DNA from: Parcubacteria group bacterium
GTDB taxonomy: Bacteria; Patescibacteriota; Minisyncoccia; Moranbacterales; UBA2206
NCBI GenBank assembly: GCA_041664225.1
Contig: JBAYLE010000001.1
Coordinates: 68,939 to 132,938, forward strand
Reading direction: 5' to 3'
Length of the DNA: 64,000 bases
Shown here one piece after another: positions 26,581 to 55,045 of the stretch; position 1 is the stretch's first letter; each line of letters starts with the position of its first letter. The position numbers were made by a program, and so were the translations under genes. The notes beneath the pieces were generated by a model. It did not search any database. It saw only the letters and a program-made list of their open reading frames with translations, and had not been told where the DNA came from.

Positions 26581-26653
26581 GGGCCCTTAGCTTAGTTGGT
26601 AGAGCGCCTCGTTTGCACCGAGGAGGTCAGGAGTTCGAATCCCCTAGGGTCCA
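26581..26653 (+). tRNA. tRNA-Ala (anticodon TGC)
   Basis: Cloverleaf readable; anticodon loop TTTGCAC; G3:U70 alanine identity pair. Confidence 0.85.
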
Positions 26654-26677
26654 CAAATATGCTAAAATATGAAAAAT

Positions 26678-26751
26678 GGGCGATTAGCTCAGCTGGTTAG
26701 AGCGCGTCACTGATAATGACGAGGTCCGAGGTTCGAGTCCTCGATCGCCCA
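26678..26751 (+). tRNA. tRNA-Ile (anticodon GAT)
   Basis: Cloverleaf readable; anticodon loop CTGATAA; acceptor GGGCGAT/ATCGCCC. Confidence 0.85.
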
Positions 26752-26777
26752 CAAAATAAGCTAAAAAACACCATTTT

Positions 26778-50537: not shown

Positions 50538-51707
50538 ATGAATAAATATTCCAGACTAAAAATACTTTTTTTCGCAATAATATTCTGCGGAACTTTTAAG
50601 TTAGCAGAAAATTCTCTGGCAGCTCCGGCCGTCACGGGCGTTTCAGGCACAGTTGAACATGGACAAAATATTACGATAACGGGCACGGAGTTTGGAACGA
50701 AATCAACCGCGGCGCCTTGGAAATTCGATGATTTTAGCGGCGGAGCAAACGGACAGACACTAAATGAATACACAAACGGCTGGAGCACGTCAATTACATC
50801 TCCGCTTTGTGGTGATCCTTGGCCTGACCATAATTGCATACCCGTTTATTCTAATTCGATAATAAGGCCAAACACGACGATGAGCTTGTTGTCGAGATTT
50901 CCCACTGTCTATCAAGGACCGTATGACAGCCAGTTTTGGATAACGTCCGATGAGCCATTTTCAGATGTTTATATTGATTATTATTTATACGCAGACACCG
51001 ACTCTCCATATGCACGGAATATGAAATTTTTCAGATTGCTTTCTGAAAGATATGACGCCCACCTGGCTCCTTATTTTGATAGTTATTATGTTTCTTACAG
51101 AACTAGTGCAGAACTTACTACGGATAATACTTCAGCCAATAATCCCGGCGCGTGCAGCACTTCTTCAGGCGGGAATGGGGTTGTTAAAAATTTGCCGTAT
51201 ATAGCAGATACTTCGAATAATTGGATTCACGTGCAGATTTTAAACAGGCTGAATACTCCCGGTACTGCCGACGGAACTATGCAAATGTGGGTAAACGGCG
51301 TGAATTATAAAGATGTAGCCAATTATTGCATTCGGGAAGCAGATAATACTGATGCGTGGAAAACATTAGGGCTCGGCAAGGAATGGTATCAGGATACAGT
51401 GGGCGATTCAGGTTCTGACAATTATTGGTCGAATGTTTATGTGGATAAAACTCCCGCGAGAGTAATGTTGTGTAACAATAGCAACTTTTCGTCAGCGACG
51501 ATCTGCGAGCCACAAATTCCTTCGGGGTGGGGAGCAACTTCAATTACAACAGCGGTAAACATTGGAGATCTTCCAAGCACCGGCACGGCTTACCTTTTTG
51601 TTTTTGACGCGGATAATAATCACAACGCGACAGGCTATCCAGTGACTTTGGGCGCGATGCCGGACACTACCCCGCCGGCCAGCCCTACTGGATTGAGCGT
51701 GAATTAA
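50538..51707 (+). CDS. Secreted protein (signal peptide; jelly-roll/lectin-like) ending in TPPASPTGLSVN*
   Basis: N-terminal signal peptide; no catalytic family assigned. Confidence 0.6.
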   Translation: MNKYSRLKILFFAIIFCGTFKLAENSLAAPAVTGVSGTVEHGQNITITGTEFGTKSTAAPWKFDDFSGGANGQTLNEYTNGWSTSITSPLCGDPWPDHNCIPVYSNSIIRPNTTMSLLSRFPTVYQGPYDSQFWITSDEPFSDVYIDYYLYADTDSPYARNMKFFRLLSERYDAHLAPYFDSYYVSYRTSAELTTDNTSANNPGACSTSSGGNGVVKNLPYIADTSNNWIHVQILNRLNTPGTADGTMQMWVNGVNYKDVANYCIREADNTDAWKTLGLGKEWYQDTVGDSGSDNYWSNVYVDKTPARVMLCNNSNFSSATICEPQIPSGWGATSITTAVNIGDLPSTGTAYLFVFDADNNHNATGYPVTLGAMPDTTPPASPTGLSVN

Positions 51708-51723
51708 AAGTTTATAAAGTAGA

Positions 51724-53208
51724 ATGAAAAAAGAGAACATGAAATTAAAAATCATTCTTACAACAATTTTATTCTGTGGTTTTTTCGGCTTGGTCCACTC
51801 CGCTTCCGCCAAGACTTTTTATCTGGACGGGGATTTAAGTTTCAATTGTTCTGGAAATTATTCGATTGCAAATAAAAATTGTTCGGGGAGTGACGGAGAT
51901 GCGTATGTGTCCTTGGCTGATGCTGAAACCGCTCTGCAGGGAAGCGACACTCTGTATATCCGATCGGGCACTTATTCGCACGCGACAACTAATAGTAATA
52001 CGGCGGGAATTTTAGACATTACAAAAGCCGGTTCTGCTGGAAATCCAACGATTGTAAGCGGTTATCCCGGAGAACAGCCGGTCATCTGCGCTTATCAGGG
52101 GCATTGCAACTACAATCCCAACCCGGCTGATAATAGCGTTACTCCGTGCACCCCCGGAACGTCTGCCGGAGGCGCGGCTTGTTATTATCCCAACCCGGCC
52201 GTATCTATCCAGAACAGTTATGTGAAATTAATAAATATCAAAACCTACGGGCAGGTTGTATTGCCCTATATTAATGGCAAGCATGACATCACCATAGAAC
52301 AATGTGATATTGGAGGAGCGGGCCCGTTTCTCAACCAGGGGCAGGCTTTAGCCATAGACGGTTATGATTCTTCACCTGGAGCATATAATATAACTGTTCA
52401 GAATAATAAAATCCACCACAGCGCTTGGGGCGAGGCAATTTTAAACAGCAGCACGCTGATGACGTATGCAACTGGTGATTTAATTATAGAAAACAACGAA
52501 TTTTCTGATGGCTACGGTCCGGATGTGAGAATTAAGGACGGGAATTATCAGGGCGGAACAAAATCGGTTACAATCAGAAACAACTTTTTCAAGCCATCCA
52601 CCATCAGTCCGGGAAATTCAGGAGTAAGCGGCGTAGGGCAGTGGGACCAGCTATATATGGTCTATGTTCATAACAATATATTTTTTGGCAAGAACATTGC
52701 CGGCGGGCATGATACAAGCAATATTATGTATTATAATAATACATTCATTGATAATGATTATGATTTATACTCTTGGGCGGCCGGACTGACTTTATCATCT
52801 TATAACAATCTCCACTACCACTCCAACAGCAGCAAATATTATATATACCACGAAAACCAGAGCCCCACTACAGTGCTAATTTCAGATTATAATTTATTTT
52901 ACCAGACTGGCACTGGAAATAAGTGGAAAAATGGGGCTACATCCACCACCAGTTTTTCTGCCTGGCAGGGAGCAGGCTATGACGCAAATTCCATAAATAG
53001 CAGCGATCCAAACTTCGTCAACGCTTCCGGCAATTTTAATATACCGACAGATTTCAAGCGAAATTCTTACACTGAAAATTTTATCGGCTCAAGTTACGGC
53101 AATCATGCCGGCGCCTATGAAACCGGCAATGAAACCATCGGCGTTGACTGGACAACTCCGGCGGATGTGACGCCGCCGGCCAGCCCGACAGGATTAAGCG
53201 TTAGCTAG
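51724..53208 (+). CDS. Secreted right-handed parallel beta-helix (pectate-lyase-fold) protein ending in TPPASPTGLSVS*
   Basis: Signal peptide; repeated NN-containing PbH1-like coils (QNNKIHH, ENNEFSDG, RNNFFK, HNNIFFG, YNNTFIDND). Confidence 0.65.
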   Translation: MKKENMKLKIILTTILFCGFFGLVHSASAKTFYLDGDLSFNCSGNYSIANKNCSGSDGDAYVSLADAETALQGSDTLYIRSGTYSHATTNSNTAGILDITKAGSAGNPTIVSGYPGEQPVICAYQGHCNYNPNPADNSVTPCTPGTSAGGAACYYPNPAVSIQNSYVKLINIKTYGQVVLPYINGKHDITIEQCDIGGAGPFLNQGQALAIDGYDSSPGAYNITVQNNKIHHSAWGEAILNSSTLMTYATGDLIIENNEFSDGYGPDVRIKDGNYQGGTKSVTIRNNFFKPSTISPGNSGVSGVGQWDQLYMVYVHNNIFFGKNIAGGHDTSNIMYYNNTFIDNDYDLYSWAAGLTLSSYNNLHYHSNSSKYYIYHENQSPTTVLISDYNLFYQTGTGNKWKNGATSTTSFSAWQGAGYDANSINSSDPNFVNASGNFNIPTDFKRNSYTENFIGSSYGNHAGAYETGNETIGVDWTTPADVTPPASPTGLSVS

Positions 53209-53268
53209 AAAATTAGTATATTTATGCTGTAATAAAGTCAGAAAAGATACTCTGATTTTTGGTAAAAT

Positions 53269-53652
53269 ATGAAAAAATCAATCATAATATTGTTGATAAT
53301 TCTATTCGTAGGTTTGTTGTTGTTCCAGGCCCTTTCTGGTAAAATAGAGGCAAGTGGGCAAGCTAATTTGTCGTGGAATCCGAATACTGAAGCGGATGTA
53401 GTCGGCTACAGGATTTATTATGGCACGGCTCCCAGAAACGCGGACTGTCCGCCAGGCGGCTATACTGACAATATTGATGTTAAAAAGGCGACAAATTATA
53501 AAATTGAAAATTTAAAAAATAATCAGACCTACTATTTTTCTGTGACATCCTACGACAATTCCAAAAAAGAAAGCTGTTTTTCCGAGGAGATGAAAAAAAC
53601 GATATCTATTGTATCAAATCTTAAAGCTATATTCAAAAAAAGTGATAAATAA
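53269..53652 (+). CDS. Small secreted FN3-like domain protein (domain begins at strand B)
   Basis: Signal peptide then ANLSWNPNTEADVVGYRIYYGT FN3 B-C strands. Confidence 0.6.
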   Translation: MKKSIIILLIILFVGLLLFQALSGKIEASGQANLSWNPNTEADVVGYRIYYGTAPRNADCPPGGYTDNIDVKKATNYKIENLKNNQTYYFSVTSYDNSKKESCFSEEMKKTISIVSNLKAIFKKSDK

Positions 53653-53719
53653 ATTTTTTTTGGACAGTGATAAATTCAAAGAGAAAAAAATAAAATTAAA
53701 ACTTTTCAGGGGATTTTTG

Positions 53720-55045
53720 ATGGCGGCTTTCTTGCTGATAGTTTTTGGTGTGTTGGGGTTTATTTTCCGCAGTGATTTAAAATTGCGAACGAATGCCTCA
53801 ACCTACGGTTCGGCAGTTCTCGTCTGGGATGCCAACAGCGAACCGGATCTGGCCGGATATAAAATTTATTATGACACTTCTTCTCATTCCGGAAGCTGCC
53901 CCGAAGGGTATGGAGCAAATGTTGTGGATGTCGGGAATGTCACGACTTATACTATTGGAACTCATCCTGGAGACCCAGACCTGGTCTATGGCCAGACTTA
54001 CTATTTTTCCATAACGGCTTATGACGATGCTTCTCCGGCTAATGAAAGCGACTGTTCCAGTGAAGTAAGCAAGTTAATAAATGCTCCAACAATCACGAAT
54101 GTTACTTCAGACAAAACCGATGGAACTTATGATACTAATGCAGTCATTGACATCGATGTTACTTTTTCCGAAGCGGTAACTTCTACAGGAGTTGTTATAG
54201 TCACTTTGGAAACCGGCGCGACCGACAGGACTTGCACTTTTACTATAACGAATTCAACAACTGGAACCTGTAATTACACTGTTCAAGCTGGCGACAGCTC
54301 GAGCGATTTAAATGTCAATAGTGTTTCCGGCACGATTAAAGACCAGGGGTTGAACGAAATGACCAATTTTGCGCCTACAACAAACCTGTCCACGAATAAA
54401 AATTTAATTATCAATGGCGTCAGCCCAGATACTATTCCGCCCGACAGATCGAACGGATCTCCCACGGGCAAACTTTCTTCAGGGACAAAAAGCAAAACAA
54501 TATCGCTTACGACCAATGAAAACGCGACTTGCAAATATGCGACTTTGTCAGGGGTTGATTATTCATCAATGACTTCAACTTTTACAACTACTGGCGGAAC
54601 ATCTCATTCTGAGAGCATTTCGGGTCTTAGCAACAATCATTCTTATAATTACTTTGTGCGTTGTCAGGATGAATCTTTAAATTCCAACCTCGACGATTAT
54701 GTGATATCTTTTTCAGTCAATAAAAAATCTTCCGGTTCCAGTAGTTCTTTAAAAAGCAAGAAATCAACTAAATATAAAATCAGCAATACGCCCAAAAATC
54801 TTGGCCGCGGCCAAATCGCCATCCAATCCGGGAAAAAATTCTCCAAAAATAGTTTTGTAAAGCTTTATTTTTCAAGACCACTGGGGGGTTATTACGCGCC
54901 GCAAATAGTAAAAACGTCTATTACGGGAACATTTGCAATTTCCTACAAGATTCCTTGGTATAAGCCGTCCGGAAAATATACTTGGTATGCGGTAGATGGG
55001 AAAACCGGGTCAAAAAGTAATAAAATTACATATACAGTTAAATAG
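53720..55045 (+). CDS. Secreted multi-domain surface protein (N-terminal FN3-like domain lacking strand A + Ig-like repeats)
   Basis: TM/signal MAAFLLIVFGVLGFI; SAVLVWDANSEPDLAGYKIYY FN3 core; start set to ATG 53720 inside ORF opening at 53609. Confidence 0.6.
   Translation: MAAFLLIVFGVLGFIFRSDLKLRTNASTYGSAVLVWDANSEPDLAGYKIYYDTSSHSGSCPEGYGANVVDVGNVTTYTIGTHPGDPDLVYGQTYYFSITAYDDASPANESDCSSEVSKLINAPTITNVTSDKTDGTYDTNAVIDIDVTFSEAVTSTGVVIVTLETGATDRTCTFTITNSTTGTCNYTVQAGDSSSDLNVNSVSGTIKDQGLNEMTNFAPTTNLSTNKNLIINGVSPDTIPPDRSNGSPTGKLSSGTKSKTISLTTNENATCKYATLSGVDYSSMTSTFTTTGGTSHSESISGLSNNHSYNYFVRCQDESLNSNLDDYVISFSVNKKSSGSSSSLKSKKSTKYKISNTPKNLGRGQIAIQSGKKFSKNSFVKLYFSRPLGGYYAPQIVKTSITGTFAISYKIPWYKPSGKYTWYAVDGKTGSKSNKITYTVK

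Follow-up and report, generated by a model that had tools for sequence, protein, structure and literature searches.

The 64,000-nt stretch analysed here (hereafter the window; contig JBAYLE010000001.1 of a Parcubacteria group bacterium) carries, between rnhB on one side and rpmF-nusB-rnc-smc on the other, a cluster of four forward-strand genes, P1 to P4, which look like a donor-acceptor surface-display module based on an FN3 domain divided at its A-B loop. The two putative donors, P1 and P2, end in a short tail with the sequence of an FN3 A-strand, and the two putative acceptors, P3 and P4, begin with an FN3 domain from which that strand is missing. Within the window the tail was found only on P1 and P2, and neither a tail nor an A-less FN3 domain was found outside the four genes. 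The open reading frames are those described in a first-pass annotation made from the sequence; their features, in window positions, are as follows.

50538-51707, + strand: P1, donor, 389 amino acids (aa); N-terminal signal peptide, body of uncertain fold, C-terminal tail
51663-51707, + strand: tail of P1, DTTPPASPTGLSVN plus stop codon; candidate orphan FN3 A-strand, fitting D-T-T-P-P-x-x-P-x-G-L-x-V-x-stop
51724-53208, + strand: P2, donor, 494 aa; secreted right-handed beta-helix, PL6-like by a weak profile match
53164-53208, + strand: tail of P2, DVTPPASPTGLSVS plus stop codon; candidate orphan FN3 A-strand, unstructured in the monomer model
53269-53652, + strand: P3, acceptor, 127 aa; hydrophobic helix, six-stranded A-less FN3, basic amphipathic helix
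53275-53337, + strand: P3 residues 3-23, N-terminal hydrophobic helix (AlphaFold2)
53356-53604, + strand: P3 residues 30-112, FN3 without strand A (AlphaFold2, Pfam)
P3 residues 119-125, + strand: short basic amphipathic C-terminal helix (AlphaFold2)
53642-55045, + strand: P4, acceptor, about 441-478 aa; signal or transmembrane segment, A-less FN3, further Ig-like domains; start uncertain
about 53795-54034, + strand: A-less FN3 of P4 (Pfam fn3, hidden Markov model (HMM) of the P3 family)

P1 and P2 look like Sec-exported, polysaccharide-lyase-like putative enzymes. For P2 the beta-helix proposed at first was recovered by AlphaFold2 with a predicted template modelling score of 0.87 and a regular strand ladder in the body; homologues bear PF13229/PF22842, and the family profile matches PL6 lyases and chondroitinase B at E-values of 1e-5 to 1e-4, a weak resemblance. 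The jelly-roll, lyase-like nature first attributed to P1 has only a sub-threshold Pfam match to the PL14 polysaccharide lyases behind it (E=5e-4); a TIG match was sub-threshold as well, and PDB sequence and NCBIfam searches with P1 gave no match. The P1 family forms a cluster of 13 genes in seven loci, 12 of which carry the tail. For P4 the open reading frame stands, and it is the start that is uncertain: the ATG at 53720 chosen in the first pass leaves the hydrophobic segment without a basic n-region, which is supplied by each of three in-frame alternatives, TTG 53660, TTG 53609 and GTG 53642, the last being the gene call of the Joint Genome Institute and overlapping the end of P3 by 11 nt.

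P1 terminates in ...MPDTTPPASPTGLSVN-stop and P2 in ...PADVTPPASPTGLSVS-stop, their common tail being D(T/V)TPPASPTGLSV(N/S)-stop. BLASTP aligned the two proteins over two segments only, the signal peptides and the tail, the latter with 12 of 13 residues identical. At the DNA level (51669-51707 versus 53170-53208) the similarity reported at first was found again, with 31 of 39 positions identical (79.5%, and not the ~85% then given), and falls to chance level directly upstream; among the 13 codons six are identical, five differ synonymously and two nonsynonymously. In sequence terms the tail is an FN3 A-strand of 13-14 residues placed after a flexible Pro-rich linker. It has neither a transmembrane helix nor a basic end, and known sortase-type motifs are absent from it as well. 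No curated NCBIfam model covers it, and no description of it, or of a natural genome-encoded split FN3, was found in the literature searched.

In the AlphaFold2 monomer model of P2 the tail is predicted not to pack on its own protein: residues 481-494 are undocked, with a predicted local distance difference test (pLDDT) value below 50, and the body is modelled with confidence. The low values of these last 14 residues argue against a role of the tail within its own polypeptide, either as a cap or stabiliser of the catalytic domain or as the protease-resistant or glycosylated end of a linker. Such a role would suit the Pro/Thr-rich composition, which is that of interdomain linkers, and the D-T-T triplet, a candidate modification site; but some close homologues of P2 end without any tail, and the same tail occurs at the end of proteins with unrelated folds, in some cases behind a complete FN3 domain. 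We regard this explanation as very improbable.

The acceptor side was examined with the Pfam fn3 profile (PF00041). P3 matched it through residues 29-98, which correspond to positions 13-72 of the 84 in the profile (32.6 bits, for a cut-off of 25 bits), and P4 through profile positions 10-73 (16.8 bits, below the cut-off); P4 also matched the P3-family HMM (E=1.6e-29), and the two FN3 domains are paralogues with 34% identity. The first ~10-12 profile positions are thus unmatched in both proteins, which indicates that the A strand is absent, as the first-pass annotation had proposed. Among the acceptors generally, N-terminal FN3 domains start at profile position 13 (10 for P4) and internal FN3 domains of the same proteins at position 1 or 2.

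In the AlphaFold2 model of P3 (114-sequence alignment; pLDDT of 88 overall and 95-98 across the domain) the domain is predicted to consist of six strands, with neither a strand A nor a substitute for it. The completeness of the domain by itself, which would have spoken against a split, was therefore not what was obtained: the model falls short of the seven-strand A-B-E / C-C'-F-G sandwich, is otherwise of FN3 fold, and its top Foldseek matches in the PDB are all FN3 domains. The P3 family (99-166 aa) is represented by 120 listed matches, with Parcubacteria, Moranbacteria, Pacebacteria and Patescibacteria as named sources; 116 of them bear the core motif, and in no case does a PxxPxxLxV strand precede the FN3 core. 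About 8-16 residues separate the N-terminal hydrophobic helix from the start of strand B, and the proteins end in a basic amphipathic segment that is conserved. In P4-like proteins strand B directly follows a signal peptide of the classical cleavable type (...AFA|G(S/T)ATLxW), and variable domains come after the FN3; the P4-like proteins of loci L047 and L131 (L numbers designate fetched loci) terminate in PG_binding_1 domains. An exhaustive search with the P3-family profile also returned giant proteins made of tandem FN3 domains of the same subtype, whose internal repeats have their own D-x-T-P-P-x-x-P-x-I/L strand in cis; since such generic multi-FN3 proteins dominate the output, no clean family size can be given.

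Two further features of the P3 family were noticed. A Cys pair is invariant (CPxGGY ... ESCFS; C60 and C103 of P3; window 53446-53578), which suggests a conserved disulfide. Three charged residues near strand G, E101, E107 and K110, are invariant too, and this cluster might lie near the site occupied by the linker or the C-terminus of a tail.

Joining the tail of P2 to mature P3 widened the fn3 match from profile positions 16-72 to 5-72 and raised its score from 32.7 to 36.7 bits, in line with the initial remark that the junction resembles an intact FN3 domain. As a control, an HMM was built from cis-complete repeats of the same FN3 subtype, taken from the giant proteins, and the acceptors were scored with and without tails. 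Native tails brought a gain of 6.8-8.1 bits for P3 and of 9.9-10.8 bits for P4, against about 1 bit for shuffled tails (SD 2.0 for P3 and 1.3 for P4; SD, standard deviation). At one locus (L131:6493-10339) both tails read ...TGLKV(I/T)-stop and strand B of the adjacent P3-like protein reads ...AFLEW, other loci having GLSV with LSW; this may be a Lys/Glu compensatory pair across the proposed A-B interface, a single case which we did not use as evidence.

The distribution of the tail was followed in 136 fetched loci, 122 of which had been fetched for the beta-helix family of P2. Tail-ending genes, 98 of them distinct, were present in 42 of the 136 loci, with the consensus D-T-T-P-P-[AS]-[AS]-P-[TS]-[GN]-L-x-[VI]-x-COOH; the pattern was found on 12.4% of the gene ends in these loci versus 0.2% of shuffled ends. 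Homologues of P2 with 33-50% identity repeatedly end in the same way, e.g. in ...DTTPPSSPSGLAVS-stop and ...DTTPPAAPSGLSVN-stop. The carriers belong to several unrelated families, including beta-helix, PF14099 lyase-like and P1-like proteins, and there are arrays of unrelated signal-peptide proteins all of which end in the tail. In the loci of the beta-helix family the ending was seen in metagenome-assembled genomes labelled Nitrospira/Nitrospirota, Gamma- and Deltaproteobacteria, Bdellovibrionales, Acidobacteria, Myxococcaceae, Moranbacteria and other Patescibacteria; common as it is in such groups, the tail is not specific to episymbionts. The arrays comprise 4 consecutive genes in L088 (Bdellovibrionales), about 7 in L037 (no organism label), about 10 in L085 (Moraniibacteriota) and 17 in L133 (an Acidiferrobacterales contig). 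In the last case (L133:1-18343, overlapping L089) the 17 signal-peptide genes are mostly separated by about 9 nt and interrupted once, by a PIN-domain gene pair; their bodies include beta-helix, PF14099 and PL14-like ones, and their tails all read ...D(T/R)(L/T/I/V)(A/P)PA(A/V)P(T/S)NL(T/S)VQ-stop.

In 85 of the 98 distinct tail genes the stop codon lies exactly one residue past L-x-V, and it is kept in orthologous as well as paralogous loci; the continuous polypeptides that an accidental split of one gene would predict in orthologous loci were thus not what was found. A P2-P3 fusion by read-through or frameshifting was rejected on the grounds that four stop codons lie within the 60 nt between the two genes (window 53206-53271). 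An assembly error or a pseudogene was rejected too, since an identical P2 is present on a second contig and the stop is maintained in about 100 divergent genes. That P2 and P3 share a reading frame is what could be put forward for an artefact of one of these kinds, but P3 is equipped with a start codon and an export segment of its own, and the probability that we give to it is negligible.

Tails of the same genome differ mostly at synonymous sites, including switches between AGY and TCN serine codons; within L089, 36% of the pairwise comparisons of tail codons showed synonymous and 13% nonsynonymous differences. Synonymous divergence with conservation of the peptide points to purifying selection on the tail peptide and not to recent gene conversion. 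These observations bear on the idea that the DTTPPxxPxxL-coding stretch is merely a joint at which FN3 domains are gained and lost, tails and A-less domains being neutral scars or recombination cassettes. Fusions could be cited for it, since beta-helices are followed by a full FN3 domain in L002, L034, L070 and L093, and a lyase, an FN3 domain and a tail are fused in P0192, L100 and L135. The genomic surroundings also go in this direction. Genes of toxin-antitoxin or defence type lie between tail genes in four loci (L124:1482-5103, L127:4534-8529, L135:7272-14043 and L133:11919-12528), with Pfam matches to AbiEii, Fic, HEPN/HepT-like/nucleotidyltransferase, HigB-like, PIN and AAA_14/DUF4143, which suggests that the tail arrays are plastic genomic regions. 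However, the peptide is kept while synonymous sites have diverged, the position of the stop is fixed across phyla, and an identity of 31 of 39 nt with an abrupt upstream end is too little for homologous recombination. In addition, the signal peptides of the acceptors would make no sense in a fusion product. Domain shuffling is therefore an improbable source of the tails, and the recombining modular gene family initially considered as an alternative is disfavoured for the same reason: with tail codons diverged at synonymous sites, recombination would find no long stretch of identical DNA. Even if binding works otherwise than we propose below, the tail is a widespread and strongly selected C-terminal motif.

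To see what replaces the tail, the slot that follows the conserved end of the catalytic core was compared in the beta-helix and PF14099 families. It contains the tail in some homologues and nothing in others; elsewhere it is occupied by a complete FN3 domain and then the tail, by a dockerin-like end (with a dockerin Pfam match in one member), by a type IX secretion system (T9SS)-type C-terminal domain (PF18962 in P0023), or by a Cys-rich stretch, a transmembrane helix and a basic end, which we read as having the look of a sorting signal. Since it shares its place with dockerin-like, T9SS-type and sorting-type ends, the tail sits in the slot of anchoring or docking modules.

The sorting-type end recurs. 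In PF14099 and beta-helix enzyme homologues (P0179, P0186, P0189, P0190, P0200, P0209, others, and L101:2-934), two of which are named Nitrospirota by NCBI, it reads S-G-G-G-C-G-F-[VI]-K-D and continues with a hydrophobic helix and a basic end; its sequence looks like a Cys-containing C-terminal membrane-sorting signal. Another C-terminal module, a heptad-like helix (...IQKQIQxLQQKLIELLAKLAE...), ends large donor-related surface proteins of the candidate phyla radiation (CPR) at L114:4980-7502, L118:5428-7734, L135:16284-19169 and L136:5595-9992.

The linkage of tail genes with A-less FN3 genes was examined in both directions. Starting from the beta-helix family, A-less FN3 genes were found to adjoin tail genes in L001, L035, L037 and L047, and to do so too in the differently organised L004/5 and L031. 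Starting from P3 homologues located on long contigs, 2-7 tail genes were found immediately upstream in five cases out of seven (L124, L126, L127, L129 and L131). In CPR loci the order is invariably tail genes, then a P3-like gene (membrane helix and A-less FN3), then usually a P4-like gene. In L126 the module consists of no more than two tail genes and a P3-like gene, flanked by aspS and a gene for a major facilitator superfamily transporter. The PF14099 heparin-lyase-I-like family provided one further positive locus, the patescibacterial L135, in which five tandem genes coding for lyase, full FN3 and tail are followed, about 460 nt downstream, by a gene for a 141-aa protein made of a signal peptide and an A-less FN3. 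Among diderm contexts L134, a polysaccharide-biosynthesis locus of Desulfuromonadaceae, was positive: it has two tail genes and, about 9 kb downstream of them, a gene for a 910-aa protein whose signal peptide leads straight into strand B. Diderm donor families are indeed found in loci of this type (glycosyltransferase, Wzy and Asn-synthase Pfam matches in L134), where their role could be different.

The tail is thus conserved on unrelated enzyme families, strand A is gone from the acceptors and the linkage of the two kinds of genes is conserved. The reading that we prefer, with a probability of roughly 0.55, is that insertion of the tail in trans, in the place of strand A, tethers the enzymes to membrane or wall anchors. 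Several of the results weigh against it. An A-less first FN3 of the same subtype also heads giant multi-FN3 proteins that have T9SS-type C-termini and no evident donors, and the six-strand domain may consequently be stable and functional alone, a point on which AlphaFold confidence is uninformative, as it says nothing of the stability of a strand-deficient domain. The linkage has its exceptions: no canonical donors were seen in L130 and L132, found from P3 homologues, and no acceptor was found within 10 kb of the single donor of L136 (reached from the PF14099 family), within 13 kb of the donor array of L085 or, as an acceptor-type FN3, in the 19 kb fetched around the 17 donors of L133. Donors often exceed acceptors in number, up to 7 to 2 in L129. 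Lastly, the assignments of signal-peptide cleavage and membrane topology come from visual inspection.

The same results would fit a conserved C-terminal tag with another receptor or another role, be it a sorting, retention or processing signal or a contact with carbohydrate or envelope, the neighbouring A-less FN3 proteins being independently stable and taking up no strand. The wide occurrence of A-less first FN3 domains, donor-free giant proteins included, the large diderm donor arrays without a nearby acceptor, the unequal numbers and the sorting-type modules that fill the tail slot of homologues are all in keeping with it. Against it stand the features of the tail already described, i.e. 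no transmembrane helix, basic end or known sortase-type motif and no curated NCBIfam match, and the fact that its conserved residues are the core-facing ones of an FN3 A-strand and that the chain stops where strand A stops. Moreover, an A-less FN3 gene is the only recurrent partner beside tail genes in CPR loci and, in L126, their sole non-housekeeping neighbour. Taken jointly, such other roles appear unlikely to us. The donor-strand complementation suggested by the first-pass annotation is to that extent supported, by the conserved stop, the six-strand P3 model and the gene order seen from both directions; its analogy with chaperone-usher pilins is a loose one (see below).

Insertion of the tail in trans as strand A could proceed as follows. 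P3 and P4 would be exported with the first residues outside the membrane belonging already to FN3 strand B. Without strand A, the B-E sheet would have two strands and an open edge, and part of the core would be exposed. After export, the tail of a donor would insert antiparallel to strand B of the acceptor, its Leu and Val/Ile residues occupying the core positions normally supplied by strand A, and would complete a seven-stranded sandwich; one enzyme would be held, non-covalently, by each acceptor. Physical binding, its stoichiometry and the tethering function are what we infer here. For P3 the anchor could be the membrane, through the transmembrane helix and the basic amphipathic helix, and for P4 a longer envelope-associated scaffold, relatives of which end elsewhere in peptidoglycan-binding domains. 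In the standard FN3 topology, the transmembrane helix and the C-terminal helix of P3 both exit at the pole that bears the A-B loop, so that the inserted tail would end beside the membrane and the enzyme would project outwards. Where a complete FN3 precedes the tail, as in L135, the docked pair would look like an ordinary junction of tandem FN3 domains, except that the chain is interrupted in the A-B loop.

Beyond the locus, we see even odds that these genes exemplify a hitherto unrecognised general docking device, distributed from CPR bacteria to Nitrospirota and Proteobacteria, in which a 13-residue C-terminal strand tag, borne in a single locus by as many as 17 different secreted polysaccharide-active enzymes, completes A-less FN3 domains on membrane-, wall- or surface-anchored proteins. 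If the tail does insert as strand A, this would explain how ultrasmall, wall-poor CPR bacteria, and possibly many diderms, manage without sortases, S-layer-homology domains or cellulosome modules to hold whole sets of secreted polysaccharide-active enzymes on their surface. It would also provide a very small natural peptide/domain pair, possibly useful in protein engineering, as a minimal natural counterpart of cohesin-dockerin or SpyTag/SpyCatcher. A rule would follow for the annotation of thousands of hypothetical proteins, donors being recognised by a C-terminal D-T-T-P-P-x-x-P-x-G/N-L-x-V-x and acceptors by an FN3 domain beginning at strand B right after the export signal.

Some observations concern the rest of the window. 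Adjacent tRNA-Ala(TGC) and tRNA-Ile(GAT) genes, a pair usually located in the 16S-23S spacer, are present at 26581-26752, and no rRNA gene was detected at Rfam gathering thresholds anywhere in the 64 kb. Over positions 1-64000 there is a strong strand bias, the + strand carrying 62 of the 77 called genes; GC skew is positive except in one 2-kb bin, and cumulative skew climbs over almost all of the window, in agreement with a location inside a single replichore.

The arrangement proposed for P1-P4 can be compared with several known systems. In chaperone-usher pili and in the Pam pili of CPR bacteria, which use donor-strand exchange without an outer membrane (bioRxiv 10.64898/2026.03.03.709456), another polypeptide provides the strand that an incomplete Ig-like sandwich lacks. 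There, however, it is the C-terminal G strand that is missing and not the A strand, the strand is donated by an N-terminal extension or an internal linker instead of an extreme C-terminus, PapD-like chaperones are needed, and the product is a polymer. No Pfam or NCBIfam match to a PapD-like chaperone or an usher was found in P1-P4 or among the genes listed for the related loci. Since donors and acceptors are different proteins here, docking would be expected and not polymerisation, with a geometry that implies a 1:1 ratio. In the type V pili of Bacteroidota (FimA/Mfa1) the groove does result from a missing N-terminal strand and is filled by the C-terminal strand of another subunit; there, proteolysis of a lipoprotein precursor takes the strand away and the subunits polymerise, whereas the acceptor genes described here do not encode the strand and no polymerisation is implied.

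The cohesin-dockerin pairs of cellulosomes offer a likeness of organisation, many secreted polysaccharide-active enzymes sharing a small C-terminal module that binds an anchored scaffold. Dockerin-like ends, as seen above, replace the tail in homologues, and cohesin and dockerin Pfam matches are present in L130. They are borne there by downstream A-less FN3 proteins (L130:10593-13228), in a heavily frameshifted assembly where rpoC and ftsK are fragmented. P1-P4 themselves gave no dockerin or cohesin match, such matches being confined to some homologues and to L130. There is no kinship of sequence or fold between the two systems: a dockerin, with about 60-70 residues, folds into a Ca-binding domain, unlike the 13-residue strand considered here, which would become part of the fold of its acceptor. 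The LPXTG, PEP-CTERM, MYXO-CTERM and GlyGly-CTERM signals and the T9SS C-terminal domain are defined by a motif with a transmembrane helix and a basic end, or by a domain of 80-110 residues; the tail chain ends one residue past L-x-V, and it is in homologues that such ends are found in its stead. As the defining features of chaperone-usher systems, C-terminal sorting signals and cohesin-dockerin pairs are all lacking, the split-FN3 arrangement belongs to none of these classes. Among laboratory constructs, SpyTag/SpyCatcher and 10Fn3 fragment complementation are those in which a short strand peptide rebuilds a truncated beta-sandwich, SpyTag with formation of an isopeptide bond.

The closest mechanistic analogue appears to be found at the tip of type IV pili, where the C-terminal strand of PilC/PilY1 complements the minor pilin PilK; in the type II secretion system GspK supplies the equivalent strand in cis (bioRxiv 10.64898/2026.02.14.705861). 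In both PilC/PilY1 and the P1/P2 donors, the extreme C-terminal strand of a large protein (about 10 residues) is proposed to complete the sheet of a small membrane-anchored partner, and related systems have the strand fused in cis, as do the fused FN3 versions reported above. The acceptor, on the other hand, is a pilin there and would be an FN3 domain here, without any pilus machinery, and what would set the P1-P4 type of module apart is that many enzymes share one tag and that the split falls in the A-B loop of an FN3 domain.

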